Source: an uncultured archaeon (lineage in GTDB: Archaea > Iainarchaeota > Iainarchaeia > Iainarchaeales > DATDZZ01). Taken from it: a DNA stretch of 64,000 bases. The notes beneath the pieces are model-generated. The model saw only the letters and a program-made list of their open reading frames with translations, made no database searches and had not been told where the DNA came from. Both the position numbers and the translations under genes were made by a program. Of this stretch, positions 3,330-42,972 are shown piece by piece. Where the stretch lies: NCBI GenBank assembly GCA_964373795.1, contig CAYJVY010000007.1, positions 21,385 to 85,384 on the forward strand, read 5' to 3'. Every line of letters starts with the position of its first letter. The first letter of the stretch is position 1.

Positions 3330-4826
3330 TTAAAATTTGTTTATTTTTTCAAGTATCTCCTCATTTGACTTTTTTTCCTCTACTAGTTTTTCTAAAAATT
3401 TTCTTCTTTTGAGTAATTCAGAGTTTAATTCTTTTTCTTTTAATCCAAAGCATTGCATTATTTTTGTTTTAACTTTTTTTGATTCGTTTGTTTTTTCTAA
3501 ACAGTTTTTTTCGTAATTGAATTTAAATAATGTGTTTAATTCAACTTCTTTTTGTGATTCAAGTATTTCAGTTATTTCAATTATTTTTCGTATTTCTTTT
3601 TTTGAATTGTTTTTTAAATCAATTTTGTTCCAGCGTTTTTGAATTATAATTAAATCAATTGATGTTAGATCCATTTCCATTACTTTTAATTTTTTTAATC
3701 TCTTTAATGCTTCATTTGAACTTAAAGCATGAAAGGTTGCATAAGATCCTTTTCCTTGTCCTGCAAGCAAGGTATTAATAAATGCTTCAACTTCTTCTTG
3801 ATTTCGGATTTCTCCCACAATTATTCTGTCTGGGCGCATTCTAAGTGTTTCAACTATTAAGTTTTGCATTTTAATTCCAAGGTTTTCAACAGTATTTAAT
3901 TTAATTAAGTGTTTGTGTGGAAGATTTATTTCAGGAGTTTCTTCTGTTAAAATAATTCTTTCTTCTTGTGGAACAAAATAGAATAATGCATTCATTGAAG
4001 TTGTTTTTCCTGATCCAGTATTTCCTGCAATCATTAAACTTGAATCAGTGTTTAATGTCATCCAAAGAAAGGCTAGTGCTTCAATTGAAACAGTGTTTAA
4101 TTTAATTAAGTCAATTGGAGTGAAAGGTTTTTTCTTGAATTTTCTAATTGTAATGCTTGGCCCCGAAAAAGTTATTGGAGAAATTAATGCATTTATTCTT
4201 GAGCCATCTAATAAGCAGGCATTTAAATTAGGGGTTTGAAGGCTTAATTGTCTTCCAAGTTCTCTGCTCATTTTGTTTACTAAATTTTTTACTGTTGTTT
4301 CATGGGAATAATATAGATTTGTTTTAAGCCATCCAAAAGTTTTTTCAAATATGTGCACAGGTTTTAATTCTCCTAAACCTATTACAGTTATTTCTTCTAT
4401 TTCATCATTTTCTAAAAGCTTTGATATTGCCCCATATTTGAATACTTGCGAATTAAGTATTTCAAGCAAATATTCTTTTTGTTCTTCCTCTAGAAAAATT
4501 GAATTTTTTTCACAATAATTTTGCAGAGTGTTTTCAATTAAAGCAATTTTTGGATTATCTATTTCTTTTACTTGGAATTCATTTAAAATTTTTTGAATTA
4601 ATTCTGCCTCTTGAACAGTTAATTCAGGAATTTCTTTTATTACATAAATCCTTTCATTGTTTCTTAACTCAATTATTTTGAATTCATTTTTTTCAATCAA
4701 TGTTTTGTTTATTTCTTCTTCTCTGAAATGGAATACTCTCCATCCAAGAATTTTTTCAACCTCTTTTATTTCTTTAAAGCTTTGAGTTAAGCAAATCAAG
4801 TTTTGCACAGAATTTTTTTTATTCAT
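3330..4826 (-). CDS. FlaI/TadA/CpaF-like secretion ATPase (VirB11 superfamily)
   Basis: 498 aa. Walker A AGNTGSGKTT, Walker B DRIIVGEIR, a His-box region, and an N-terminal FlaI-like domain. Confidence 0.85.
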   Translation of the reverse strand: MNKKNSVQNLICLTQSFKEIKEVEKILGWRVFHFREEEINKTLIEKNEFKIIELRNNERIYVIKEIPELTVQEAELIQKILNEFQVKEIDNPKIALIENTLQNYCEKNSIFLEEEQKEYLLEILNSQVFKYGAISKLLENDEIEEITVIGLGELKPVHIFEKTFGWLKTNLYYSHETTVKNLVNKMSRELGRQLSLQTPNLNACLLDGSRINALISPITFSGPSITIRKFKKKPFTPIDLIKLNTVSIEALAFLWMTLNTDSSLMIAGNTGSGKTTSMNALFYFVPQEERIILTEETPEINLPHKHLIKLNTVENLGIKMQNLIVETLRMRPDRIIVGEIRNQEEVEAFINTLLAGQGKGSYATFHALSSNEALKRLKKLKVMEMDLTSIDLIIIQKRWNKIDLKNNSKKEIRKIIEITEILESQKEVELNTLFKFNYEKNCLEKTNESKKVKTKIMQCFGLKEKELNSELLKRRKFLEKLVEEKKSNEEILEKINKF

Positions 4827-4892
4827 TTAATTCATTTTACTTCAATGAATAAAGGTTAATAAGATTTCACCTAAATTCGCTTATTGCAGAAG

Positions 4893-4918
4893 TTAAGGTT
4901 TTTAAATAAAAACCTTAA
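4893..4918. promoter_or_regulatory. perfect 12-bp inverted repeat TTAAGGTTTTTA-aa-TAAAAACCTTAA in a divergent promoter region
   Basis: Read directly from the sequence. Lies in the 99-bp divergent spacer between the ATPase operon (minus strand) and ORF 4926 (plus strand), and embeds a TTTAAATA TATA-like core. Confidence 0.35.
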
Positions 4919-4925
4919 TTAATAT

Positions 4926-5495
4926 TTGATGCGAAAAAATTCCAGTTTTAATGGGTTTCCACAAGAATTTGCAATGGCTTTAGAGTTACTTAAATCAAAG
5001 CCTGTTTTTTATCATGATAAAACAACTCATTTAAAAATTTTTTTAAGAGAAATTAAAGGCGTTATTAATCCTCAAATAAGTTTTCCTGATTATCATGATG
5101 CATTATTTTTTGAAGCAGAAGATTTAACTAAATCTTTTAATGCCTCTTTGAATGACTTAACTTATGTTGTTAGATTAGATTCTTTTTTTGAGGAGAAGAC
5201 TAAACTTTTTTTTGCAATAGAGTTGACTTCTAAAAATGAGTTGAATTTAAGTAATTTGCCTTTAATTTTGTTAAATTATTTAAGTAAAAGAGTTGCTGAT
5301 GATTGGAATAAAAAAATTGATTCTTTAAATGAAATTAATTCTGGTTTTTTTGGAGTATTAGATTCTAGTGTTAATTCTTCAGTTAACTTGAATGAATTTG
5401 AAAAAATGTTTTTTTTGATTGAAAAAAATAGAGTTGTATTGCTTTTTGAATTTCCTTTAAAAGAACGAAAATCTTCAGGCTATTTTGAGGATTAA
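4926..5495 (+). CDS. hypothetical protein
   Basis: 189-aa ORF with no recognisable motifs. Divergent from the pilus-like operon. Confidence 0.4.
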   Translation: MMRKNSSFNGFPQEFAMALELLKSKPVFYHDKTTHLKIFLREIKGVINPQISFPDYHDALFFEAEDLTKSFNASLNDLTYVVRLDSFFEEKTKLFFAIELTSKNELNLSNLPLILLNYLSKRVADDWNKKIDSLNEINSGFFGVLDSSVNSSVNLNEFEKMFFLIEKNRVVLLFEFPLKERKSSGYFED

Positions 5496-6463
5496 AATTC
5501 TGTTAACTTTTTTGTTTTTGCTGAGTCTGTTTTAAAGTTTGATTCGTCTGCGTGTATTGTGTTAATTGCTTCTGCAAAAAGGTTTGCCACGCTTAATACT
5601 TTGAATTTTTCTGAAAGTTTTTTTTCAATTTGATTGATTGAGTCAGTTACAATTATTTCTTTGATTGATTTGTCTGAAAGCCTTTCTATTGCTGGTTCGG
5701 AAAAGATTCCGTGTGTTGCGGCAACATAGATGTCTAATGCACCTTGTTTTTTTAAAGCCTTAGCTGCTTCTGAGACAGTTCCCGCAGTGTCAATCATGTC
5801 GTCTAATATTATGCAGTTTTTTCCTTTGACTTCTCCTACTACTGTCATTTCTTCTACTTCGTTGTGTTTTACTCTTCTTTTGTCAATTATTGCTATTGGT
5901 GCATTAAGCATTTTTCCCACTCTTCGAGTTTTTTTTGCCGCGCCTGTATCTGGAGCAATTATGCATAAATTTTTTAGTTTTTTTGAAACAAAGTATTCAA
6001 CTAGTAATTCACTTGCATGTAAATGATCTACTGGAATATCAAAAAAGCCTTCAATTTGATCTGAATGTAAGTCAAGTGTTAAAACTCTGCCTGCCCCAGA
6101 GGTTGCAATTAGGTTTGCAACAAGTTTTGCAGTAATTGGTTCTTGTGGCTTGGCTTGCCTGTCTTGTCTTGCATACCCATAATATGGGATTACTGCAGTA
6201 ATTCTTTTAGCCGAACTTCTTTTCACTGCATCAATTATTATTGCTAATTCCATTAAATTATAATTTACATCTTTTGAAGTTGGTTGAATTATAAATACAT
6301 CTTTGCCTCTAACATTTTCTTCAATTCTTACATATACTTCTCCGTCTTTAAAATGAGATATTTCCATTGAACTTAATTCTATATTCAAATATTTTGCAAT
6401 TTTTTCAGCTAAAAGCGTATTAGATGATCCTGTAATTATTGCTAAATTAGAGTCTTTTTTCAT
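5492..6463 (-). CDS. prs: ribose-phosphate pyrophosphokinase
   Basis: Motifs DGEVYVRI, ARQDR, DLHSDQIEGFFDIPVDHL, and the PRPP-binding loop IILDDMIDTAGT. Confidence 0.9.
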   Translation of the reverse strand: MKKDSNLAIITGSSNTLLAEKIAKYLNIELSSMEISHFKDGEVYVRIEENVRGKDVFIIQPTSKDVNYNLMELAIIIDAVKRSSAKRITAVIPYYGYARQDRQAKPQEPITAKLVANLIATSGAGRVLTLDLHSDQIEGFFDIPVDHLHASELLVEYFVSKKLKNLCIIAPDTGAAKKTRRVGKMLNAPIAIIDKRRVKHNEVEEMTVVGEVKGKNCIILDDMIDTAGTVSEAAKALKKQGALDIYVAATHGIFSEPAIERLSDKSIKEIIVTDSINQIEKKLSEKFKVLSVANLFAEAINTIHADESNFKTDSAKTKKLTEF

Positions 6464-6503: not shown

Positions 6504-7484
6504 CTATATTGTTTGAATTTCTGTTACTTGAAATAAAACATTTTCTTTTAAAGAATTCAAGTTTTCTGTATTACTTAAAGAAGGAGTTGAAGGATTGGAA
6601 ATTCTTAAAATTAAAGGGTTTTGAGAATTTGCAAGAACAATGAATTGATTTTCAAGTAAATCAATTGCTTTAATTACTTCAATTGTTTGCATTTCATTAT
6701 TGATTTTAATGTTATAATAACTTGTTTCGCCATTGTTTGTTAAATCAATTCCGTAAATTCCTTTTTGAGGCAAAAACTTTTTCTTTTCTTTAATCCATTG
6801 AGGTTCGACATTGAAGTCAAAATTAATGCTTGTTTCTCTAGTAGTTGAGAGCTCATCAAAAGTTAAATCGCTTAACCAAATCAAACTGTTTTCAACATTT
6901 TTTTCTCCTTCAAGCCATTGAAATGGACTTGAAATAATTGCTCCGTTTGCAACAACATTTTCTTCTATTTCTCCTAATTTAAATTTTTCTGCAGTTAAAG
7001 TTCCATTAATTTTTTCACTTGCATTTAATTCAAATGAAATTTTGATTTTTTCTTTTGGCTTGAATTCAAGTACTTGAATTTGAATTTCTGTTCCTTCAAC
7101 TGTTGATTCTTTTGAAACAGGTTTAATTGTTAGCTTCATTCCTTGAGCTGAAAGGCTTTTACTTAACTTTTCTGCGTTTTCTTTTTCGTTTTTATTTAAT
7201 TCTTTTTCAGAGAAAAAAGGATTTGAGTAAACAGGAACTTTATTTATTGGATTGCCTTCAACTTTTGATACTCCTGGAATAGTGTCAGATTTGTTTACAA
7301 GAACATCATTATTTGTGGAAATATTTGTAACTGGTTTTAGTGGATTTAATAAAATGAATGCAACAATTACTGCAAGCACTATTCCTGCAATTATGTAAAC
7401 TGCTATTGCTGTTTCTTTTTTTTCTGATTGCATTGAATAATTTGTTTCTTGATTTCTTTTAGGCATTGTATTAATTACCTTCAT
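6504..7484 (-). CDS. membrane-anchored extracellular protein, unknown function
   Basis: 326 aa with one N-terminal transmembrane helix followed by an S/T/N-rich extracellular domain. Lies 22 bp downstream of the P-type ATPase on the same strand. Confidence 0.45.
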   Translation of the reverse strand: MKVINTMPKRNQETNYSMQSEKKETAIAVYIIAGIVLAVIVAFILLNPLKPVTNISTNNDVLVNKSDTIPGVSKVEGNPINKVPVYSNPFFSEKELNKNEKENAEKLSKSLSAQGMKLTIKPVSKESTVEGTEIQIQVLEFKPKEKIKISFELNASEKINGTLTAEKFKLGEIEENVVANGAIISSPFQWLEGEKNVENSLIWLSDLTFDELSTTRETSINFDFNVEPQWIKEKKKFLPQKGIYGIDLTNNGETSYYNIKINNEMQTIEVIKAIDLLENQFIVLANSQNPLILRISNPSTPSLSNTENLNSLKENVLFQVTEIQTI

Positions 7485-20915: not shown

Positions 20916-21614
20916 ATGAATTTGAATTCAATTGCCTTCATTCCAGATGGAAATAGAAGGTTTGCTGGTTTAATGAATATTTCTCTTGCAGAAGCTTATT
21001 CTTTGGGAACTCAAAAAGCTTGGCAAGTAATTGACTGGATTTCAAAGTATAAAGAAATAAAGTTTGGAACTTTTTACACTTTGTCACTTGAAAACCTGCA
21101 AAGAAATAATTTAGAGTTACACATTTTATTTAAATTATTTGAAAACGAGTTAATTAAAGTAAAAAACTCAGATTTTTTTCAAGTAAAAGGAATTAAATTG
21201 AAATTTATTGGAAGAATTGATTTACTGCCTAAAAGCCTTCAAAAACTGGTCTCAGAAGCTGAAAAACAAACTTCTCAAAATACTGAAAAACAAATTAATT
21301 TAGCAATTGGATATAACGGGCAACAAGAAATAGTTGATGCTGCAAAAAAAATTGCTGAAAAATTCAAAAACAATGAATTGAATTTAAATGATTTAAAGCC
21401 TGAAAATTTTAAAAATTATTTATATGAAGACTTTCCTTTTCCTGACTTAATTATTCGCACTTCAGGAGTTGAACGTTTAAGTGCTTTTCTAACATATCAA
21501 TCCAGTTACTCTGAATTAGAATTTATTAACAAGTACTGGCCTGAGTTAAGTGAACAGGATTTAAATAAAGCTATTTCAAATTATTACACTAGAAAAAGAA
21601 CTTTTGGATTGTAA
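20916..21614 (+). CDS. uppS: cis-prenyltransferase (undecaprenyl-diphosphate synthase family)
   Basis: Motif IAFIPDGNRRFA (DGNRRWA-type) plus the conserved C-terminal RTSGE…LS region. Confidence 0.8.
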   Translation: MNLNSIAFIPDGNRRFAGLMNISLAEAYSLGTQKAWQVIDWISKYKEIKFGTFYTLSLENLQRNNLELHILFKLFENELIKVKNSDFFQVKGIKLKFIGRIDLLPKSLQKLVSEAEKQTSQNTEKQINLAIGYNGQQEIVDAAKKIAEKFKNNELNLNDLKPENFKNYLYEDFPFPDLIIRTSGVERLSAFLTYQSSYSELEFINKYWPELSEQDLNKAISNYYTRKRTFGL

Positions 21615-33145: not shown

Positions 33146-33457
33146 ATGGCTGAGTCAAAATTTTCTGCAATAAACAAATGTAGGTCGTGTGGATCGGAAA
33201 ATTTAGAGTTTGTTTTATCTCTTGGAACTCAATTTGTTTCTGCTTTTGTTGATTCAAATTAAATGGGGAAAAAAACTGTGGGAACTTTAATTCCAATTAT
33301 TTCTGAAGAACAAGCAAGAAAAGACAAGCCGAATTATTTTCTTATATTGCCTTGGCATTTTTTGAAAGAATTTAAAGAACGAGAAAAAGATTTCTTGAAT
33401 TCAGGCGGAAAATTTATTGTTCCTCTTCCTGAGTTTAAAATTATTTCTTCTCAATAA
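33146..33457 (+). pseudogene. internally deleted remnant of a TylCIII-like sugar C-methyltransferase
   Basis: N-terminal zinc ribbon (CRSCGSENLEFVLSLG) followed by an in-frame TAA at 33260 and ATG, then a C-terminal segment (PNYFLILPWHFLKEF…GGKFIVPLPEFKII) homologous to the C-termini of ORFs 48793 and 53406. The roughly 300 aa between them are missing. Confidence 0.5.
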
Positions 33458-34466
33458 GTTTAACAATTTTTTTCACGTTTTGAGCTTCATTTTTATGACA
33501 AATTAATATTTTATCATTGCTTTCGACAATAATTAAGTTTTTTACACCAATTAATCCAATTAATTTTTTTCCAAAAACGATGTTATTTTTTGATTCAATT
33601 GCAATTGTTGGAGCAATTAATGTATTTTGATTCTCATCTTTTCCAAATTTTCTTTCCAACGCAGTCCAATCTCCTATGTCATCCCAATCAATTGGCGCTT
33701 CAACAACACTTAAATTTAATTCTTTTTCCATTATCCCATAATCAATTGAAATGTTTTCAAGTCCATTAAAAACTTCTTGCATAATTTTTTCATTAAAATT
33801 TGATTGCTTTATTTTCATTAAACCTTGATATAAGTTTGGCATGAATTGTTTGAATGATTCAAGTATTACTTTTGCTTTAAAAATAAATATACCTGAATTC
33901 CATAAAAAGTTTTTTGATTCAATGAATTCTTCAGCTTTTTCTTTATTGGGTTTTTCTACAAATCTTTTTACTTCAAAAAGTTTGTCTTTAATTTTGTTTC
34001 CTTTTTCAATATATCCATACCCAGTTTCTGGACGAGTAGGAGTTATTCCAATTAAAACAATTTTCCCTTTTTCTGCTTCTTTAAAACCAATTTCTAAGTG
34101 TTCAAAATATTTTTTATTATCTTTATAAGTATGGTCTGATGTTTCAACTAAAATTGTTGCTTCTGGATTTTCACTTAAAATTTTTATAGCACTTAATCCA
34201 ATGCAGGCAGCAGTATTTTTTGCAATTGGCTCTAAAACAAACTTAGCTCTTGGAACGACTTTTTTAATTGGTTCGAACAAGTTTTTTCCAGTTGAAATAA
34301 AAATGTTTTTTTCAGGAATTAATTGAGTTAATCTTTCAACTGTTTCTTCAATCATTGTTTTTTCAGTGAAAATTTTCAAGCATTGTTTTGGAGTTTCCTT
34401 TGTTGAAGCAGGCCAAAATCTTTCACCAAATCCGCCAGCCATTATAACTACAAATCTATTTTGCAT
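33441..34466 (-). CDS. mannose-1-phosphate guanylyltransferase (NDP-sugar pyrophosphorylase)
   Basis: N-terminal VIMAGGFGERFWPAS motif and ManC-type architecture. Confidence 0.8.
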   Translation of the reverse strand: MQNRFVVIMAGGFGERFWPASTKETPKQCLKIFTEKTMIEETVERLTQLIPEKNIFISTGKNLFEPIKKVVPRAKFVLEPIAKNTAACIGLSAIKILSENPEATILVETSDHTYKDNKKYFEHLEIGFKEAEKGKIVLIGITPTRPETGYGYIEKGNKIKDKLFEVKRFVEKPNKEKAEEFIESKNFLWNSGIFIFKAKVILESFKQFMPNLYQGLMKIKQSNFNEKIMQEVFNGLENISIDYGIMEKELNLSVVEAPIDWDDIGDWTALERKFGKDENQNTLIAPTIAIESKNNIVFGKKLIGLIGVKNLIIVESNDKILICHKNEAQNVKKIVKLIEKK

Positions 34467-35424
34467 TTACTTTTTCTCTCCAGTAATTCAGTAAGTCTTT
34501 TAATGTCTGCTCAAATGGGATTTCTGGTTTCCAGCCTGTTTGTTTTATGAATTTAGTTGAATCACATAAAAGTAATGGCACATCACTTGGACGCATTCTT
34601 GAAGGATCTTTAACTATTTCGATTTTTATCTTTGTTAACTTTAAAAGCATTTGTTGTAGTTCCTTCATTGAATAAGCTTTTCCTGTTCCAATATTATATT
34701 CTTCTCCTGGAACCCCTTTTTCTGCAGCTAAATAATATGCTTTAACAATGTCTCTTACGTCAGTGAAATCTCTTCTTGCATCTAAGTTTCCACAGAATAA
34801 TTTTGGTTCTCTTTTTTTTGCTTCAATTTCAGCTATTTGTTTACACCAATTGCTTGCAACATATACTTGTCCTCTTCTAGGCCCTGTGTGATTGAATGCT
34901 CTTGTTCTAACTATTTTTAATCCATAGCTTTTAAAGTATTGATATCCAAATAAATCTGTTGCAACCTTGCTTACTCCGTAAGGACTTAAAGGTCTTAAAG
35001 GATTTGATTCTTTTATTGGAACCTCATTTTCTAAAACTAATCCATATTCTTCACTTGATCCAGCTAAATGAATTTGTGGATTTAATTCTAGTCTTCTTAA
35101 TGCTTCAAGCAAGTTAACTGTTCCAAAAATATTTGAATTAATTGTTTCGTGTGGAGCAAGCCAAGACTTTGGAACAAATGCTTGAGCAGCTAAATGAAAA
35201 ACATAATCTGGTTGAGATTGTTTTAATGAATCCAAAACAGTATTTTGATCAGTTAAATCACATTCAAATAATTTTACTTTATCTAAAATATGTTTAATGT
35301 TGTCTAGTTTTGCATTATATGTTCTAATAGTTCCATGTACTTCTCCTAATTTGTTACTCAAAATATAATCAGCTAAATGGCTTCCTGCAAAGCCTGTAAT
35401 GCCAGTAATAAAAAATTTCTTCAT
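34456..35424 (-). CDS. GDP-mannose 4,6-dehydratase / reductase family SDR (paralog 2)
   Basis: Motifs ITGITGFAGSHL, YGVSKVATD, and RAFNHTGPRRG (the Gmd NHxGPRRG signature). Confidence 0.7.
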   Translation of the reverse strand: MKKFFITGITGFAGSHLADYILSNKLGEVHGTIRTYNAKLDNIKHILDKVKLFECDLTDQNTVLDSLKQSQPDYVFHLAAQAFVPKSWLAPHETINSNIFGTVNLLEALRRLELNPQIHLAGSSEEYGLVLENEVPIKESNPLRPLSPYGVSKVATDLFGYQYFKSYGLKIVRTRAFNHTGPRRGQVYVASNWCKQIAEIEAKKREPKLFCGNLDARRDFTDVRDIVKAYYLAAEKGVPGEEYNIGTGKAYSMKELQQMLLKLTKIKIEIVKDPSRMRPSDVPLLLCDSTKFIKQTGWKPEIPFEQTLKDLLNYWREKVNAK

Positions 35425-36548
35425 TTTTCTTCCTCCAGTTCTTTTTCATAAACCTCAATAAATTTATTAATATTTTCTTTCCAATCAAACCTTTTAACAA
35501 AGTTTGAAGCATTTACGACAATTTTTTGCTTCTCTTTATTGTCTAAATTTATTATTTCATTAATTTTTTTAGCAGCATTTTCATGATTTGAATAATCGAC
35601 TAAAAAACCATTAGTATTATTATTAATTATGGTTCGAAATTGGTTTATATTATTTACGATTGGAATTAATTTTACAGTCATTCCTTCAATTAATGAAATT
35701 CCAAAACCTTCAAATTCTGAAGCCGAAACAAAATATTCCGCTTTTGCAAGTTCTTGTAATAAATCTTTTTCATTTCTTTCACCTAGTAAAAACACGTTTT
35801 TTTGTAATTTGTTTTCTTGAATTAATTCTGTTAACTCGTTAGTTAATCCATGAAAGTCTTTTCCAATTATTTTTAATTTCACGTTTGAATTTAATTTAAT
35901 CAGTTCTGCAAATGTTATAATTAAGTTGTCTACCCGTTTGTTTTTTGAGATTCTTCCAACAAAAATAAACGAATTTTTTTCCTGCTTTTTTTTTAGTTTA
36001 AATTTTTCTAGATTGAATGGAATTTCAATTACTCCTAAATTTTCTTTCTTAACTATCTTCGAAAAACTTTCAAAATCAGTTTTACCAATAGCTAAAATAT
36101 GTGACTTGTTTAGTGAAAACTTTAACCACAAATTAAAATAAATCCATTTTATAATACTTAATTTTCGTGTATGAAATATTCCTCCTCCTGTAGAGACAAC
36201 TAGTTTTTTCGAATGCAATCCAAGCAATTTTGTTAAAATTAAATAATCTGCAAAAAAACCCAATCCGTGAATATGGATTAAATCAAATTCTTTTACAAAA
36301 CTTAAAACCTTTAAAGCGATTTTATAATATTTTAAATCAATAAAAGGAATTCTGTGAATTTTAATGCCTTCTTCAAAAGATGCCTCTAGCAATATTTCAT
36401 CCGAGTTATGGCATTTATTTAAGCAGACAATTTCTGAATAGATTCCTTTTTTATTTAATTCTTTTGCCAACTCCAATACATATGTTTCAATTCCGCCAAT
36501 GCATGGAAAAACATGATTTGTCACATGTAATACTTTGAATTTTTTCAT
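35421..36548 (-). CDS. glycosyltransferase family 4
   Basis: C-terminal EFEGFGISLIEGM motif (the GT4 E-x7-E region). Confidence 0.75.
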   Translation of the reverse strand: MKKFKVLHVTNHVFPCIGGIETYVLELAKELNKKGIYSEIVCLNKCHNSDEILLEASFEEGIKIHRIPFIDLKYYKIALKVLSFVKEFDLIHIHGLGFFADYLILTKLLGLHSKKLVVSTGGGIFHTRKLSIIKWIYFNLWLKFSLNKSHILAIGKTDFESFSKIVKKENLGVIEIPFNLEKFKLKKKQEKNSFIFVGRISKNKRVDNLIITFAELIKLNSNVKLKIIGKDFHGLTNELTELIQENKLQKNVFLLGERNEKDLLQELAKAEYFVSASEFEGFGISLIEGMTVKLIPIVNNINQFRTIINNNTNGFLVDYSNHENAAKKINEIINLDNKEKQKIVVNASNFVKRFDWKENINKFIEVYEKELEEEK

Positions 36549-37508
36549 TTAATTCGCCTTCAAATAACCTGTAATTAATCCTGTACAAAAAGCAATTGTT
36601 CTAATAAATAACATAAATGGACTAATTAGCGCAACTAAAAAATTTTTTTGCAATGCAAATAATGTGAAAGGAATAAAACTCAAAAACAATGCTGTAAACA
36701 GAATGAAGACAATCATTATTAGGGGTAAATAAATTATTGAAAAAATTAAAAATAATGGAATTAAATATCCTAATAGAATTTGGATTTTCATTAATTGAGG
36801 GGTATAAGAATCTTTCACAATTTTTTCTTTAAAGTTCTTGTATAATTTTACTCTCCAAAAAGCGCGAAAAAATTTTACTTTAATATATTTCCATAAAGAG
36901 GTTGGATGGAAGTGAAATACCATTGCCAAGGGGTTAAATATTAGTTTAGCTCCTTTTTTTGCAAGCTTAAAACTTAAATCAGGATCCTCTCCTGAGGCAA
37001 TAGGGTATGATTCATCAAATCCTTTTACTTGCATAAATTCTTTTTTTCGGTATGCACAGCAATAACTTCCAATAAAGTCAATGAATTTATTTTTTTTCAT
37101 TAAATTATATCTGTCTTCTATTTCTAATTGAATGAAATTAGCTATTAGTGATTTTTGTTTTGTTTTATATGTTCCTTGAACGCCAATTATTTTTTTATCT
37201 TTGAATGGTTTTAATAATTCTTTTAACATGTTTTTATCCGCTTCGCAATCGGCATCAGTGAATATGATTATTTCTCCATGAGCTTTTAATGCTCCAAGAT
37301 TTCTTGCAGTAGCTGGTCCTTTGTTTTTTTGATAAAAATATTTTACTTTTGAAAACTTTTTTACAACTTCTTTTGTTTTATCAGTTGAACCGTCGTCTAC
37401 CACAATTATTTCAAATGGTTCTAGAAAGCTTTGATTTAGCAATGACTTAATGCATGTTTCAATTCTTTTTTCTTCATTAAATGCTGGAACTATAATTGAT
37501 GCATTCAT
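36549..37508 (-). CDS. glycosyltransferase family 2 with C-terminal TM segments
   Basis: IIVPAFNEEKRI, VVDDGSTD and DADCE (DxD) motifs, followed by 3-4 C-terminal helices. Confidence 0.75.
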   Translation of the reverse strand: MNASIIVPAFNEEKRIETCIKSLLNQSFLEPFEIIVVDDGSTDKTKEVVKKFSKVKYFYQKNKGPATARNLGALKAHGEIIIFTDADCEADKNMLKELLKPFKDKKIIGVQGTYKTKQKSLIANFIQLEIEDRYNLMKKNKFIDFIGSYCCAYRKKEFMQVKGFDESYPIASGEDPDLSFKLAKKGAKLIFNPLAMVFHFHPTSLWKYIKVKFFRAFWRVKLYKNFKEKIVKDSYTPQLMKIQILLGYLIPLFLIFSIIYLPLIMIVFILFTALFLSFIPFTLFALQKNFLVALISPFMLFIRTIAFCTGLITGYLKAN

Positions 37509-37562
37509 ATTTAGATCTCAATGAAATTAAATTTAAATCCAAACTAGTACAAAATTAATTCT

Positions 37563-38369
37563 TTAAAGCATTGCTTTTGCTTTTTTAACATCATTTTTTG
37601 AGTTAATATTAATGTATATTCCTTGAAATGGGTATCCTAAAAGTAATCCTTTTTTTGCTAGTTTTGGAAAAAAATCTTTTTCAATGCTTTTCATGTCTCT
37701 TGAAATGTATTTATATATTTCGGGTTCAAATAAAAAATGTCCTGCTGAAACTAAATAGCTTTTAACTTCTTTTTTTGGTTTTTGAATGAATTCCTTTATT
37801 TTGTTTCCTTCAAGTATTACTACTCCGTAATTTTTTGGATTTGAAACAGTGGTTAACGCAATTGTTGCAATTGAATTATTTTTTTTATGAAAAGTTAGCA
37901 TGTCATTTAAATTTAGTGAACAAATGGTGTTTCCATATGAAACCAAAAAAGTGTCATCAAATAATTCTTTTACTTTGAATAATGGCTCCATTGTTCCTTC
38001 AGGTTTTTCGTTTAAAATAAAGTTAACATTGTACTCTAGCTTTTTTGAAGTTAATTTGTTTTGGATTTCATTTTGTTTAAAATCCAAGTATAATTGAAAA
38101 TTATTTGCGCCAAACTCACTTATTCTACTTAATACAGTTTCCAAAACAGTTTTTCCGTTCAAGTCAACTAAAGCAATTGGTTTTTTGTCAACCTCTTCTT
38201 TTCCACCAGCTAAAACTAAAACGTTTTTTAATTTAAAATCGGTTAAAAATTTTGTTAAAAGATACTCTATTGCTTGACTTCTGCTTCTAATTGTTAATCC
38301 ATCAATTATTCTATCAACTTGTTTTACTACGTCGTTTTTAATTGTAATAGTTATTCTATCGCGTTTCAT
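37563..38369 (-). CDS. ribbon-helix-helix DNA-binding domain fused to sugar-phosphate nucleotidyltransferase-like domain
   Basis: N-terminal MKRDRITITIKNDVVKQVDRII…RSRSQAIEYLL matches the CopG/NikR-type RHH. Residues 50-268 have the NTP-transferase fold (VLVLAGGKEEVDKKP…YGVVIL…EKP…VSAGHFLFE) but lack the GxGTR phosphate-binding residues. Confidence 0.65.
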   Translation of the reverse strand: MKRDRITITIKNDVVKQVDRIIDGLTIRSRSQAIEYLLTKFLTDFKLKNVLVLAGGKEEVDKKPIALVDLNGKTVLETVLSRISEFGANNFQLYLDFKQNEIQNKLTSKKLEYNVNFILNEKPEGTMEPLFKVKELFDDTFLVSYGNTICSLNLNDMLTFHKKNNSIATIALTTVSNPKNYGVVILEGNKIKEFIQKPKKEVKSYLVSAGHFLFEPEIYKYISRDMKSIEKDFFPKLAKKGLLLGYPFQGIYININSKNDVKKAKAML

Positions 38370-38508
38370 TTTTTCACTTTTTCGAGATTTGTATTAATTA
38401 AGTTTAAGAACTTCTTTTACTTAATCATACTATATATGATTGTTTTATTAATTTAAAGTTTTTCTTAATGGATTGTTTTACTTTTTAATCTTTTTATGAA
38501 GTGATTGC

Positions 38509-39807
38509 TTGAAGATTTGCGTTATTGGAGTAGGCTATGTAGGATTAGTTGTTGGAACTTGTTTAGCTGAATTAGGAAACGATGTTATTTGTGTTGACTC
38601 TGATAAAGACAAAATTAATAAATTAAATAAAGGAGTTATTCCAATTTATGAGCCAGGATTGAAAGAATTAGTTGATAGAAGTGTTCGAGAAAAAAGATTG
38701 TTTTTTTCTATTGATGCTGATTCAAGTATTCAAAAATCTGGAGTAATTTTTATTGCAGTTGGAACTCCTCAAGGAAGTAAAGGAAAAGCTGATTTAACTA
38801 GTATATTCAATGTTGCTGAAAGAATTGGTCAAAACTTGAATGAATATAAAGTTGTTGTAGTGAAGTCTACAGTGCCTGTTGGAACAACTGAAAAAGTAAG
38901 GCAATTAATTAAAAAAAATTCTTTAAATAAAAATGGGTTCGATGTTGTCTCTAATCCAGAGTTTTTAAGGGAAGGCGAAGCAGTAAACGATTTTTTGTTT
39001 CCAGATAGAGTTGTAATTGGAGTTGAAAGTGAGAAAGCAAAGAAAAAATTGGAAGAACTTTATAGTGGAATTGTTCGAATTAAAAGGCCTTTAATTATAA
39101 CTGATGTGAAAAGTGCTGAAATGATTAAATATGCTGCTAATTCTATGCTTGCAACAAGAATTTCTTTTATGAATGAAATTGCTCGTTTGTGTGAAAAAGT
39201 TGGAGCAGACGTTAAAATTGTTTCAAAAGGAATTGGCTTGGATTCAAGGATTGGGCCAAGATTTTTGCAAGCAGGAGCAGGTTATGGTGGGAGTTGTTTT
39301 CCAAAGGATGTTCAAGCTTTTATTAAAACAGCTGAGGAGAATGGAATTGAATTCAAAATTTTAAAAGCAGTTGAAAAAGTAAATGAAGAGCAAAAAAAGT
39401 CTTTGTTTGAAAAATTGAAGAAATTTATTCCAAATTTGAATGGAAAAAAAATTGCGTTATGTGGTTTAGCTTTCAAGCCTAAAACTGATGACATTAGAGA
39501 AGCTCCTGCGCTTACTTTAATTAATCAATTATTAAATGAAGGAGCAATTGTTCAAGCCTTTGATCCTGAAGCAGAAAATAATATAAAAAAAGTTTTTCCT
39601 CAAATAAAGTGTTGTTCAACTCCTTATAATGCTCTTGAAGGTTGTTCTGCATTAGTAATTGTAACAGAATGGAATGAATTTAGAAACCTAGATAAAGAAA
39701 AAATTAAATCCTTATTACTTGAACCAGTAATTGTGGATGGAAGAAATGTTTACGAGCCAAAAGAAATGAAAGAATTGGGGTTTAAGTATGTTGGAATTGG
39801 AAGGTGA
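38509..39807 (+). CDS. ugd: UDP-glucose 6-dehydrogenase
   Basis: TTG start. IGVGYVGLVVG Rossmann motif and GGSCFPKD catalytic Cys motif. 432 aa. Confidence 0.85.
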   Translation: MKICVIGVGYVGLVVGTCLAELGNDVICVDSDKDKINKLNKGVIPIYEPGLKELVDRSVREKRLFFSIDADSSIQKSGVIFIAVGTPQGSKGKADLTSIFNVAERIGQNLNEYKVVVVKSTVPVGTTEKVRQLIKKNSLNKNGFDVVSNPEFLREGEAVNDFLFPDRVVIGVESEKAKKKLEELYSGIVRIKRPLIITDVKSAEMIKYAANSMLATRISFMNEIARLCEKVGADVKIVSKGIGLDSRIGPRFLQAGAGYGGSCFPKDVQAFIKTAEENGIEFKILKAVEKVNEEQKKSLFEKLKKFIPNLNGKKIALCGLAFKPKTDDIREAPALTLINQLLNEGAIVQAFDPEAENNIKKVFPQIKCCSTPYNALEGCSALVIVTEWNEFRNLDKEKIKSLLLEPVIVDGRNVYEPKEMKELGFKYVGIGR

Positions 39808-39811
39808 ATAG

Positions 39812-40609
39812 TTGAAAGCAATTTTATTGGCTGCAGGTTATGCTACTAGAATGTATCCATTAACCTTGAATACTCCTAAGGCTTTGCTTAAAATTGGAGA
39901 AAAAACTATTATTGACTTCATTATTGAAAAGTTATTAGAAATAGATGTTGATGAAATCTTTATTGTTTCAAATGAAAAATTTTATCCAGAGTTTATTAAA
40001 TGGAAGGAAAACAGTAATTATTCCATTCCAATTCAGGTTTTCAATGATCAAACCAAATCAAATGATGATAAATTGGGTTCTATTGGAGACATTGATTTTG
40101 TATTAAAAAAAACAAATTTATTTGACAAATTTCTTGTAATTAATGCTGATAACTTGTTTGATTTTAGTTTAATTGAAGTATTTAATTTTTTTAAGAAAAA
40201 AAATAAATGTGTTATTGGATTATATGATGTTGGTTGGCTTGAAGAAGCAAAAAAATTGGGGGTTGTAGAAATTGATAAAAACAATAAATTAATTGGGTTT
40301 GAAGAAAAACCGGAAAACCCTTCATCTACTTTAGCTTCGACTGGAATTTATTTCTTTCCACCAAATATTGGTGAATTAATCAGGCAATATTTAGAAGAAG
40401 GAAATAACCCTGACAAGTCAGGAAAATTTATTGACTGGCTTTATCAAAGAGAGCCAGTGTATGGAATAGTTTTCAAAGGAAAATGGTTTGATATTGGTTC
40501 TTTAGAGTCTTTTGAGCAGGCAAAAAAAGAGTTTTTAAACAAGACTTCAATGTCAGAAAAAGTTGTAGTTTTAGATGACAAGGAAAAAAGCGGAAGTTTT
40601 TTTGATTAA
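39812..40609 (+). CDS. sugar-1-phosphate nucleotidyltransferase (RmlA/NTP-transferase family)
   Basis: TTG start. N-terminal KAILLAAGYATRMYPLT, matching the G-x-G-T-R-x motif family. Confidence 0.75.
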   Translation: MKAILLAAGYATRMYPLTLNTPKALLKIGEKTIIDFIIEKLLEIDVDEIFIVSNEKFYPEFIKWKENSNYSIPIQVFNDQTKSNDDKLGSIGDIDFVLKKTNLFDKFLVINADNLFDFSLIEVFNFFKKKNKCVIGLYDVGWLEEAKKLGVVEIDKNNKLIGFEEKPENPSSTLASTGIYFFPPNIGELIRQYLEEGNNPDKSGKFIDWLYQREPVYGIVFKGKWFDIGSLESFEQAKKEFLNKTSMSEKVVVLDDKEKSGSFFD

Positions 40610-40684
40610 CTTTTTGGAGAAATAAAAATGGGTTTAAAAAATTTAAAATTTTTTAAAACTTTAAAATTCCGGGAGGAATTTTAA

Positions 40685-42028
40685 ATGGAGTTTAAAGTTT
40701 TTAAAGCATACGATATTCGAGGAATTTATCCGAATGAATTAAATGAAGAAATGGCTTTCAAAATAGGTCAAGCATTTGTTCAATTCTTGAATTGCAAAAA
40801 CGTTGTAGTTGGAAGAGACATGCGTTTAAGCTCTCCTTCCTTATTTGATTCTCTTGTAAAAGGAATTACTTTTCAAGGAGCAAACGTAATTTACATTGGT
40901 TTAAGCACTACTCCTATGATGTATTTTGCTGTTGCAAAACATAGATTTGAATCAGGAATTAATATTACTGCTTCACACAATCCAAAAGAATTTAATGGAT
41001 TTAAATTAGTTCGCGAGAAAGCAATTCCTTTAAATTGGGATACTGGAATTCAAGATATTAGAAAATTAATTGAAGAAAACAAAGTTTTGCAAGGTAATAC
41101 AAAAGGAAAAATAATTAAAAAACAAAATTTAGTTCAAGAATATGTTGAACATGCATTAAATTTAATTGGCTCTGATTTGAATTTTAGTTCTTTTATAGTA
41201 GTTGTTGATACAGCTAATGCAATGGCTGGAATTGTTGCTCCACAATTTTTTTCAAAACTTAAATGTAAATTAATTCCTCTTTATTTTGATTTAAATGGAG
41301 AGTTTCCAAATCATGAAGCAAACCCATTAAAAGAAGAAACATTGCAGGACTTAAAACAAAAAGTTTTATCTGAAAAAGCTAATTTAGGAATAGCATTTGA
41401 CGGGGATGCAGATAGAGTTGTTTTTTTAGATGAAAAAGGCAATGTCCTTCAAGGAGATTTAATTACTGCATTGATTTCTGAATATTTATTGAAAAAGTTT
41501 CCTGGAGAAAAAATAATGTATGATTTAAGGTCAAGTTGGATTGTAAAAGAAACCATTGAAGCAAATGGTGGGAAACCAATTATTTATAGAGTTGGACATG
41601 CATTTATTAAGCAAAAAATGCGTGAAGAAAATGCTTTATTTGCTGGAGAGCTTTCATCCCACTTTTATTTAAGGAGTGATTTTTTTGTTGAATCTCCTTT
41701 TGTAGTAGTTGGATTTGTTTTAAGTTTAATGAAACACGAAAACAAAAAACTTTCAGAATTAATTGCACCATTACAAAAATATTTTCAGTCAGGAGAAATT
41801 AATTCAACAGTTAAAGATAAAGATGTTGTATTAAAAAAATTAGGGAAAAATTATTCTAATGCAAAAAAGATTTTTTACTTAGATGGTTTAAGCATTGAAT
41901 TCAATGATTGGTGGTTTAATGTTCGCCCTTCAAACACTGAACCTGCACTTAGATTGAATTTGGAAGCCAAAACAAAGCAATTGATGGAGCAAAAAGTTCA
42001 AGAGGTTTTAAATTTAATCAGATCCTAA
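40685..42028 (+). CDS. phosphomannomutase / phosphoglucomutase
   Basis: Active-site [14 protein letters not shown] motif and a four-domain alpha-D-phosphohexomutase layout. Confidence 0.85.
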
Positions 42029-42042
42029 GAAAGGTATTTTTT

Positions 42043-42972
42043 ATGAAAACAATTTTAGTTACAGGCGGAGCAGGATTTATTGGAAGCCATTTATGTGAAG
42101 CATTGCTTTCGCAGGGCCACAAAGTAATTTGTGTTGACAACTTTATTACTGGTTCAAAAAAAAATATAAATCACTTGTTTTCAAATAAAAATTTTTCCTT
42201 AATTGAACAAGATATTTGCAAGCCACTTGAATTAAAGGAAAAAGTTCATGAAATTTATAATTTGGCTTCAATTGCTTCTCCAAAATTTTATTATAAGTAT
42301 CCCATTGAAACTCTACTGGTTGGCTCTGTTGGGGTAAAAAACATGTTGGATTTGGCTTTAAAAAACAATGCAAAGTTTTTGCATTCCTCTACTTCAGAGA
42401 TTTATGGTGATCCTTTACAGCATCCACAAACTGAAAGTTATTGGGGAAATGTTAATCCAATTGGTGAAAGATCTTGTTATGATGAATCAAAAAGATTTGC
42501 AGAAACATTAATAATGACTTATCATAGAAAACATTGTTTGAGTTCAAGAATTGTTCGCATTTTCAACACATATGGCCCTAAAATGAGTGAAGGAGATGGA
42601 AGAGTTATTCCAAACTTTATTTCTCAAGCTTTAAGCAATAAACCTTTAACTGTTTATGGTGATGGCTCTCAAACTCGAAGTTTTTGCTATATAGATGACT
42701 TAGTTGAAGGCCTTGTTAAAGCAATGAATTCTGAATATAATTTGCCAATTAATTTAGGCAATCCAAATGAGACAACTATTCTTGAACTAGCAAAAAAAAT
42801 AATTAAGTTAACTGATTCTAAATCTAAAATTAATTTTCTGCCTTTACCTAAAGACGATCCAGCGAAACGCAAACCCGATACTTCTTTAGCAAAAAAAGAA
42901 TTAAATTGGCAACCAAAAATTTCTTTAGAAGAAGGTCTTAAAAGATTGTCACATCAAATATCATCTACTTAG
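42043..42972 (+). CDS. uxs: UDP-glucuronate decarboxylase (UDP-xylose synthase)
   Basis: [19 protein letters not shown]…[15 protein letters not shown] and YDESKRFAE, the classic UXS pattern. Ends with TAG. Confidence 0.85.

Follow-up and report, generated by a model that had tools for sequence, protein, structure and literature searches.

Which function should be expected of a protein that joins a ribbon-helix-helix (RHH) domain to a sugar nucleotidyltransferase fold without its catalytic signature? The question is raised by one gene in a 64,000-nt stretch of DNA (positions 21,385 to 85,384 of contig CAYJVY010000007.1, assembly GCA_964373795.1; hereafter the window) from an uncultured archaeon of the Iainarchaeota, which a first-pass annotation read as a candidate nucleotide-sugar-sensing regulator analogous to NikR. 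Our analysis makes it probable that the encoded protein (the query) locally regulates nucleotide-sugar genes as well as its own gene, with a pseudoenzyme domain that senses a nucleotide sugar or a precursor. The conserved NikR-type operator found in about 37 species and the pairing with a divergent dehydrogenase gene support this NikR-like role. The gene and its two domains are as follows.

37563-38369, minus strand: RHH-pseudo-nucleotidyltransferase open reading frame (ORF), ATG start, 268 aa, stop codon at 37563-37565
38235-38369, minus strand: RHH domain, aa 1-45, with beta-strand R5-I-T-I-T9 and helices 12-22 and 30-44 (RSRS opens the latter)
37566-38228, minus strand: domain of sugar-1-phosphate nucleotidyltransferase fold, aa 48-268, from Pfam, Foldseek and residue mapping; proposed ligand-sensing module

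The ORF contains all of the strings on which the first-pass annotation was built, namely ITITIKN (aa 6-12), QVDRIIDG (17-24), RSRSQAIEYLL (28-38) and GGKEEVDKKP (55-64), and a 100% identical copy of the 268-aa protein is present on two other public contigs. The N-terminal ~45 aa had been assigned to the CopG/NikR type, and family-level comparison bears this out. Alone, the query scores below threshold against Pfam RHH_1 (PF01402; 17.6 bits vs. a cutoff of 20.5, E = 0.0037), and 15 of 28 orthologs match this family, the best with 1.6e-5. A profile of the N-terminal domain built from 41 sequences matches the RHH domain of E. coli NikR among PDB entries with E = 1.6e-9 over NikR residues 2-43, followed by P. 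horikoshii NikR (1.3e-5), an RHH antitoxin and CopG. The NikR strand QRVTITL aligns residue for residue with the family strand eRVTITI, and the RVTIT core is identical. The RHH is the most conserved segment of the protein in the query's clade (28 orthologs, 45-68% identical), with R3, R5, R28-S29-R30-S31, A33, E35, L37, L38 and K40 invariant. In an AlphaFold2 (AF2) model of the monomer, helices are placed at residues 12-22 and 30-44, the strand is not assigned and the predicted local distance difference test (pLDDT) is 59-68 at the N-terminus, a low confidence of the kind to be expected when an obligate-dimer fold is modelled as a monomer. Judged by profile homology, the N-terminus is an RHH domain, NikR-like in particular, and we regard this assignment as secure despite the sub-threshold score of the query.

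The remainder of the protein had been described as the fold of a nucleoside diphosphate (NDP)-sugar pyrophosphorylase, with which sequence and structure comparisons agree. Pfam assigns NTP_transferase (PF00483, E = 1e-22) to aa 68-232, and the best PDB sequence match of the protein is human GMPPB (E = 8e-21). The AF2 monomer model reaches a pLDDT of 87.4 and a predicted template modelling (TM) score of 0.81, with pLDDT above 90 throughout the nucleotidyltransferase domain. Its top Foldseek matches in the PDB are GMPPB, Arabidopsis VTC1, Glc-1-P cytidylyltransferase and HddC (E ~1e-19, TM 0.73), the superposition onto GMPPB/VTC1 showing 2.3 Å root-mean-square deviation; GMPPA (7d72_A) is also among the structural matches. 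No Pfam match to NikR_C was found in the protein, the C-terminal 220 aa being of the NTP_transferase fold. The protein stops at aa 268, directly after this domain, and the alignments span only the catalytic domain of GMPPB/GMPPA.

The catalytic status of this domain was assessed by residue mapping on 119 members of the query's clade (clade A), with the crystal structure of VTC1 as the experimental reference (PMC9168903). In VTC1, pyrophosphate (PPi) is held by Gly9, Thr12 and Arg13 of the G-x-G-T-R loop together with Lys23; Asp111, Glu195-Lys196 and Asp219 are described as catalytically critical, Gly85 touches the base, and Gly146 and Asn173 touch the sugar (PMC9168903). The corresponding positions in the query are listed below, those that are altered by coordinate and those that are kept by residue.

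38172-38210, minus strand: degenerate, shortened P-loop-like segment, aa 54-66 (AGGKEEVDKKPIA), standing in for G-x-G-T-R...P-K
38175-38177, minus strand: codon of I65 at the PPi-binding Lys23 position; K/R in 118/119 of clade A
37929-37931, minus strand: codon of N147 at the VTC1 Asp111 position (GD motif); D in 118/119, N only in the query
37608-37610, minus strand: codon of N254 at the VTC1 Asp219 position (W-x-D-x-G); N in 119/119
G125: VTC1 Gly85 (base contact); kept in 119/119
G182: VTC1 Gly146 (sugar contact); kept in 119/119
K197: VTC1 Lys163 (EKP motif); kept in 119/119
E230: VTC1 Glu195 (catalytic); kept in 118/119, with E230-K231 present in the query
Y181 and Y252: VTC1 Tyr145 and Trp217 (pocket aromatics); aromatic in 98-100%

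The replacement of the G-x-G-T-R loop, reported by the first-pass annotation for the query, extends to the whole clade: G-x-G-[TS]-R occurs in 0/119 clade A members vs. 29/33 intact fused relatives, and re-alignment recovers no catalytic signature. The loop of the query reads GGKEEVDKKPI; it has no T-R, carries Ile for Lys and is 5 residues shorter than the canonical form, with 8 residues from GG to Lys where clade A typically has 11 and intact enzymes have 13. The degeneracy also goes beyond what had been noted, in the substitutions at I65, N147 and N254. As the sole exception in clade A at both Lys23 and Asp111, the query is, by this alignment, the most degenerate member of its clade. The loss is selective. 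The site has lost what deals with the leaving pyrophosphate and the metal and has kept what holds the nucleoside and the sugar. In the sugar nucleotidyltransferase class of enzymes, the loop Arg is essential. We rejected the exchange of Asp219 for Asn as stand-alone proof of inactivity, as it is also seen in intact-loop Woesearchaeal proteins, and most of the weight is therefore carried by the loss of the loop. Taken at the level of residues, the nucleotidyltransferase domain of the query is most likely non-catalytic. Neither of the two outcomes that the first-pass annotation had named as fatal to its reading, an N-terminus other than RHH or an intact catalytic signature, was thus observed.

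The promoter of the gene carries a conserved candidate operator. Upstream regions of the gene from 37 species were aligned by eye and then quantified, and TATA boxes were located by eye and with regular expressions. The consensus is TCATAY-N3-GTATGA, usually with a third GTATGA 10 bp on. Its occurrence was scanned in flanks of at most 10 kb and in the 64-kb window. In clade A, the operator lies within -150 to +15 of the start codon in 32/37 loci when at most one mismatch is allowed and in 36/37 with at most two. The remaining 452 kb of these loci hold 8 sites with at most one mismatch, an enrichment of approximately 300-fold at the promoters, and the few sites away from them mostly precede a second paralog of the fused gene. 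In the clade with an intact loop, the operator is found in 8/18 loci and nowhere else in 170 kb, and at the loci of unfused nucleotidyltransferase homologs, which served as a negative control, it is found in 0/14. The geometry is constant as well. The palindrome begins 16-18 nt past a TTTAAA-type TATA box with a spacing fixed across species, the third GTATGA follows the second half-site at exactly 10 bp, and in 21 species the ATG start codon lies inside the third half-site (GT-ATG-A). Scored without anchoring, the third half-site reaches 1.39 bits per position and the TATA region 0.65, both above the flanks (~0.2-0.3); what is conserved is therefore the motif itself, as opposed to a remnant of general sequence similarity. 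The elements of the window are these.

38425-38439, strand not assigned: candidate operator palindrome TCATATATAGTATGA (as read on the gene's strand), of the form TCATAY-N3-GTATGA; extended form AATCATATATAGTATGATT at 38423-38441
38415-38420, minus strand: degenerate third half-site GTAAAA, 10 bp past the second; a good GTATGA in most other species
38443-38457, strand not assigned: AT-rich TATA-like element TTTAAATTAATAAAA (gene's strand), beginning 18 nt upstream of the palindrome

Apart from this palindrome, no two half-sites in the 64 kb lie within 16 nt of each other. The TATA-like element at 38443-38457, a presumptive promoter element, may serve both divergent promoters. A second region, 4827-4925, had been put forward as a candidate binding region and is dropped here, as it contains no half-site. 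A search of 37400-38700 against Rfam returned nothing relevant.

Further observations concern the window around the operator. The strict hexamers TCATAC/GTATGA occur 15 times in the 64 kb vs. ~38 expected from base composition only, an expectation that is not dinucleotide-aware; the deficit may reflect avoidance of spurious regulator sites. The putative 5' leader from operator to ATG (38367-38430, minus strand) can form a hairpin of -10 kcal/mol (z = -3.0 vs. shuffles) that takes in the right arm of the operator. The hairpin is a near-perfect DNA palindrome, ATTAAGTTTAAGAAcTTCTTTTACTTAAT (29 nt, 38397-38425), which was not seen in the leaders of other species; it appears to be specific to the window and may act as a structure in the RNA or bind a protein as a second site.

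Specific base contacts are made in NikR by Arg3, Thr5 and Thr7. The GTATGA of the family operator is the published NikR half-site hexamer: the E. coli NikR operator is GTATGA-N16-TCATAC (PMC7055735), the enterobacterial consensus is GTATGAT-N13/14-ATCATAC (PMC545781), and each half-site receives the antiparallel beta-strands of one RHH dimer in its major groove (PMC4486848). Given the same strand and the same hexamer as in NikR, the fused protein very likely reads GTATGA-type sites. A comparison within the family points the same way: RVTINI paralogs are preceded by TCATAA-N3-wTATGA and co-resident RVTITI proteins by TCATAy-N3-rTATGA, a difference that, with n = 4, is suggestive only of a link between strand and site. 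The association was also examined in reverse, by searching metagenomes with the three-half-site motif alone and calling domains by hidden Markov model. An RHH ORF starts at most 200 nt downstream of 11/77 evaluable matches (14%) vs. 0.46% of random positions. Six of these 11 ORFs are fused RHH-nucleotidyltransferase genes, and the others code for small RHH proteins whose strand has the form R-[VIL]-T-[IV]-T.

Several further observations on strands and motifs were made alongside. Small RHH-only proteins of GC-rich organisms (metagenome contigs L100, L107, L108, L113 and L152; e.g., MSKLTRVTITLPRDVL...) start 21-24 nt past the same three-half-site motif, and the design with a start codon in the third half-site is therefore common to other RHH autoregulators of the RVTIT type. 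Upstream of a distant fused homolog with the strand RVSLTI (P0145; L072, ~3900-4000), two copies of ATTACCAAyAGTAAT flank the TATA box, and this upstream region has no GTATGA sites; the pairing of another strand with another palindrome may represent covariation of strand and operator in the family. One palindromic repeat with GC-richer flanks, GTGCGGATTTT-TCATAC-N3-GTATGA-N4-GTATGA(-N4-GTATGA)-AAAATCCGCAC, is dispersed in at least 8 copies over L089, L101, L114, L124, L127, L128 and L143, which comprise a groundwater contig of 680 kb from Hainich and two small ones. It belongs to an unrelated organism and has no fused gene next to it, and eight of the reverse-scan matches without an RHH gene are copies of it. 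Five motif matches on the 680-kb contig were considered as a regulon and rejected, being this separate repeat.

The genes on the two sides of the fused gene are as follows.

38509-42972, plus strand: divergent nucleotide-sugar operon, proposed co-regulated target
38509-39807, plus strand: UDP-glucose 6-dehydrogenase (ugd)
39812-40609, plus strand: canonical sugar-1-phosphate nucleotidyltransferase
40685-42028, plus strand: phosphomannomutase/phosphoglucomutase (PMM/PGM)
42043-42972, plus strand: short-chain dehydrogenase/reductase (SDR) family epimerase/dehydratase
33441-37508, minus strand: same-strand downstream glycan genes, comprising glycosyltransferases of families 2 and 4 (GT2, GT4), a Gmd-like SDR and a Man-1-P guanylyltransferase (ManC)
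36549-37508, minus strand: GT2, 54 nt past the stop of the fused gene

An NDP-sugar 6-dehydrogenase gene stands head-to-head with the fused gene in 33 of the 34 clade A loci that have readable upstream sequence (30 were flagged automatically; L002, L020 and L027 were added by inspection and tblastn), and the pairing recurs in a distant member with 42% identity. Next after the dehydrogenase usually come a canonical nucleotidyltransferase and an SDR epimerase/dehydratase at least 60% identical to that at 42043-42972. The start codons of the two divergent genes are 62-190 bp apart, the dehydrogenase start lying a median of 64 nt from the palindrome. In the window, the intergenic region measures 139 bp and contains a single AT-rich TATA-like element, 4 nt from the palindrome. 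In comparative genomics, conserved divergent pairs that include a DNA-binding protein usually indicate autoregulation together with control of the partner. The first-pass annotation had instead placed the gene at the 5' edge of the GT2/GT4/Gmd operon, the transcription of which it could control. The adjacency stands, and the downstream GT2, GT4, Gmd-like and ManC genes may be co-transcribed with the fused gene. However, the association is not conserved, as a GT2 homolog follows the gene elsewhere only in three Aenigmatarchaeota loci (L033-L035), and the conserved partner is the divergent ugd operon that begins at 38509.

Some details of these neighbours were noted in passing. In the canonical nucleotidyltransferase encoded at 39812-40609, the loop reads AAGYATRM, a variant in which Ala replaces the second Gly. 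On the minus strand between 32096 and 37508, the ends of the GT2, GT4, Gmd-like SDR and Man-1-P guanylyltransferase genes abut or overlap (36548/36549; 35421-35424; 34456-34466), which suggests one transcription unit for a glycan based on GDP-hexose. At locus L001, a 204-aa ORF (MKKYEVSHLPLAGVKEYFDS...; 5364-5989) is inserted between operator and fused gene, the operator staying beside the ugd start; this arrangement would give a two-gene operon behind the operator. At L020, an operator-like site with one mismatch (6866-6880) lies 11 nt upstream of a 178-aa ORF directly downstream of the fused gene, and this ORF may be an additional target in that species.

The first-pass annotation had suggested looking for the same fusion in other archaea, and word-indexed and exhaustive HMMER searches found full-length relatives across DPANN, in Iainarchaeia/Diapherotrites, Aenigmatarchaeota, Woesearchaeota/Nanoarchaeota and Parvarchaeota. 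Close matches number 192, the closest at species level being 62% identical to the query, and over 100 representatives of clusters formed at the 50% identity level align from residue 1-4 with 28-42% identity. All public names found for them are of the type NTP transferase/NDP-sugar pyrophosphorylase, and cluster look-ups of the family gave no informative names. The annotation also knew of no characterised regulator with this fusion, and we likewise found no description of an RHH-nucleotidyltransferase fusion in the open-access literature searched. The general design of an enzyme-derived sensor joined to a DNA-binding domain is well known; the architecture, the operator and the distribution in DPANN appear to be undescribed.

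Many of the relatives retain an intact site. Woesearchaeal, Nanoarchaeal and Parvarchaeal fused proteins have GGxGTRLxPITxEIPKPL, and a PMM/PGM gene typically follows theirs; the gene of a fused member from Diapherotrites (GGRGERLKPLT..PKPLL) is arranged divergently to PGM/PMM. Two fused paralogs share a locus in each of four Iainarchaeial genomes (L004, L012, L014 and L018), one a degenerate ortholog of the query and the other an intact protein of 281 aa with the active-site motifs GGKGTRLRPLT..PKPM, NGDN, EKP and WFPTD. The intact paralogs, all with the strand RVTINI, are located as follows.

L004, 8325-9170
L012, 7689-8534
L014, 6896-7741
L018, 8315-9160

Each is separated by a few kb from the degenerate ortholog and closely precedes a Gmd-like gene; their own operator variant, TCATAA-N3-wTATGA, stands ~6 nt before the ATG. 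Since relatives with an intact site carry the RHH too, the RHH fusion as such is not tied to degeneracy, and on these comparisons the fusion is older than the degeneracy. The path looks like one from enzyme-repressor to dedicated regulator. Canonical nucleotidyltransferases are present in the same window at 39812-40609 and 33441-34466.

A mechanism can be proposed from these elements. Two N-terminal RHH segments would pair to form a NikR-type two-stranded beta-sheet reading GTATGA-type half-sites, and RHH dimers would sit side by side on the two inverted half-sites and the tandem half-site, whose centre-to-centre spacing is 9-10 bp. Bound in this way, the protein would cover the predicted transcription start, and in many cases the start codon as well, block recruitment of RNA polymerase and repress its own gene. 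Because the operator lies in the shared bidirectional region, at a distance of 4 nt from the common TATA element in the window, its occupation would probably control the ugd operon too, through interference with TATA-binding protein and transcription factor B at the adjacent or shared element. The pocket of the pseudoenzyme would probably bind a nucleotide sugar or precursor and thereby tune operator affinity or oligomerisation. Candidates are UDP-Glc or UDP-glucuronic acid, in view of the divergent operon, or a GDP-hexose, in view of the GMPP-like ancestry, and co-repressor logic as in NikR with Ni or MetJ with S-adenosylmethionine would provide end-product feedback. The identity of the ligand and the sign of its effect are guesses. 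For the two halves of the proposal, we strongly infer DNA binding by the fused protein, and conservation of the pocket together with genomic context suggests nucleotide-sugar sensing.

Among known systems, the NikR proteins of E. coli and P. horikoshii are the nearest on the DNA-binding side. They share the homologous RHH, the RVTIT strand, the GTATGA/TCATAC hexamer and the arrangement of an N-terminal RHH with a C-terminal effector domain, and they act as local repressors at a promoter, as the query presumably does. In contrast, the NikR effector is an ACT-like Ni-binding tetramerisation domain and that of the query has a nucleotidyltransferase fold; the NikR half-sites are N16 apart, contacted by two RHH dimers at opposite ends of the tetramer, and those of the query are N3 apart with a tandem copy at 10 bp; and NikR responds to a metal where the query presumably responds to a nucleotide sugar. 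With no Ni-binding domain and a different half-site spacing, the protein is not a NikR. In its 9-10 bp spacing, which implies side-by-side RHH dimers, it resembles Arc/MetJ/CopG. PutA combines an N-terminal RHH with proline-catabolic enzyme domains and autoregulates a divergent promoter; its enzyme domains are active, and it is switched by redox state and membrane association. It parallels the query in having an N-terminal RHH on a metabolic-enzyme polypeptide and a bidirectional intergenic region that includes its own gene, yet PutA (or BirA) is a better analogue of the intact-loop fused relatives than of the degenerate query. Enzyme-derived sensors fused to helix-turn-helix (HTH) domains are known in NrtR (Nudix), B. 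subtilis PurR (phosphoribosyltransferase), the ROK repressors Mlc and NagC, and SorC/CggR. These likewise reuse an enzyme fold, often catalytically dead, as the effector of a local regulator in the same pathway, but they are bacterial, with winged HTH domains and other sensor folds, whereas the query has an RHH and comes from a DPANN archaeon. On the side of the fold, GMPPA, like plant KJC1/2 and the AGPase large subunits, uses a nucleotidyltransferase fold without catalysis as a regulatory or sensing module, as the query may do. GMPPA binds GDP-mannose (PMC11228364, PMC9168903). The query lacks the beta-helix domain and is for that reason not a GMPPA, and it carries an RHH, which GMPPA does not.

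Several points weigh against a ligand-sensing autoregulator with a divergent target. The window palindrome taken alone is not significant, since 11 of 100 shuffles reach the observed count, and its weight is for this reason wholly comparative. Of the 77 metagenomic motif matches, 66 have no RHH gene nearby, as is to be expected with 17 specified bases and so large a collection. The evidence for control of the divergent operon is synteny and distance, and in some species ugd appears to have a TATA box other than the operator-proximal one. Asn also occupies the Asp219 column in a Woesearchaeal subclade whose G-x-G-T-R loop is intact. Most clade A members retain Lys23, Asp111 and a basic loop after GG, and residual or altered chemistry is conceivable in them. 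Ligand binding is suggested by residue conservation, part of which could serve fold stability. Four other explanations were weighed. The protein could be a ligand-independent autoregulator whose nucleotidyltransferase-like domain is only an oligomerisation scaffold that places RHH dimers, with no small molecule involved. Three close half-sites need higher-order assembly of a kind commonly supplied by nucleotidyltransferase domains, which form oligomers (PMC9168903), the equivalent of the guanine-specific position 80 is variable in the clade, and the case for a ligand is an indirect one. Even so, a scaffold would not need G125, G182, K197, E230 and the aromatics at 181 and 252 to be kept in 98-100% of 119 members across phylum-level divergence, and the GDP-mannose binding of GMPPA (PMC11228364) provides a precedent for a pseudo-nucleotidyltransferase as NDP-sugar sensor. 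We consider this explanation unlikely.

A bifunctional enzyme-repressor like BirA, NadR or PutA, making a nucleotide sugar with non-canonical residues and autoregulating through the RHH, is probably the ancestral state, given the fused relatives with an intact site beside PMM/PGM genes, and clade members still retain Lys23, Asp111, Glu195 and a Lys/Arg-rich loop after GG. For the query it is improbable: none of the 119 clade members has the loop for the beta- and gamma-phosphates, and the query, where this segment is shortened by 5 residues, also lacks the equivalents of Lys23, Asp111 and Asp219; canonical nucleotidyltransferases are encoded nearby (39812-40609, 33441-34466); and the intact paralog beside the degenerate one in four genomes fits a division of labour. 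It is also conceivable that the palindrome is a core promoter or initiator element, or the site of another factor such as a true NikR, and that the RHH is otherwise used, for example in dimerisation only. Given the overlap of the motif with the predicted transcription start, and frequently with the start codon, signals for initiation or translation could account for part of its conservation; small RHH-only proteins elsewhere use it too, and DNA binding is deduced from sequence. We consider this very improbable, because the motif, within ~620 kb of DPANN loci, is essentially confined to positions before fused genes and never precedes unfused homologs, the nearest RHH of solved structure, which has an identical beta-strand, uses the same half-site, a different beta-strand goes with a different motif, and the base-contacting Arg/Thr positions are invariant. 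That the protein is nothing more than a sugar nucleotidyltransferase with an unusual extension at its N-terminus, and takes no part in regulation, would agree with every public annotation found, all of which name an NTP transferase or NDP-sugar pyrophosphorylase, but is contradicted by the RHH homology, the operator, the synteny and the lost catalytic signature, and we give it next to no credence.

Overall, an autoregulated nucleotide-sugar regulator remains our reading of the gene, and its family would consist of previously uncharacterised one-component regulators found DPANN-wide. Beyond the single gene, we offer more tentatively, as a scenario that falls somewhat short of an even chance, that in DPANN regulators a pyrophosphorylase was fused to a NikR-type RHH and then became, stepwise and in several lineages, a dead-enzyme sensor reading NDP-sugar pools directly at the promoters of genes for precursors of cell-surface glycans. 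Its stages are visible as intact enzyme-repressors, as pairs of intact and degenerate paralogs and as fully degenerate proteins such as the query. DPANN archaea have small genomes, few recognisable transcription factors and a cell surface that they need for interaction with their hosts, and to our knowledge almost nothing is known of their gene regulation. The locus offers a concrete, testable triplet of regulator, operator and target that is kept across several DPANN phyla and has a recognition code in common with NikR. If the reading is correct, the protein would represent the first transcription factor architecture of its kind in which NDP-sugars are sensed directly, and the pair of protein and site would be among the first defined regulator-operator pairs for DPANN archaea. 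As the family is publicly annotated as nucleotidyltransferases only, metabolic reconstructions may count a regulator as an enzyme. A series from active enzyme to pseudoenzyme sensor within one family would also be useful for understanding the origin of metabolite-sensing regulators.

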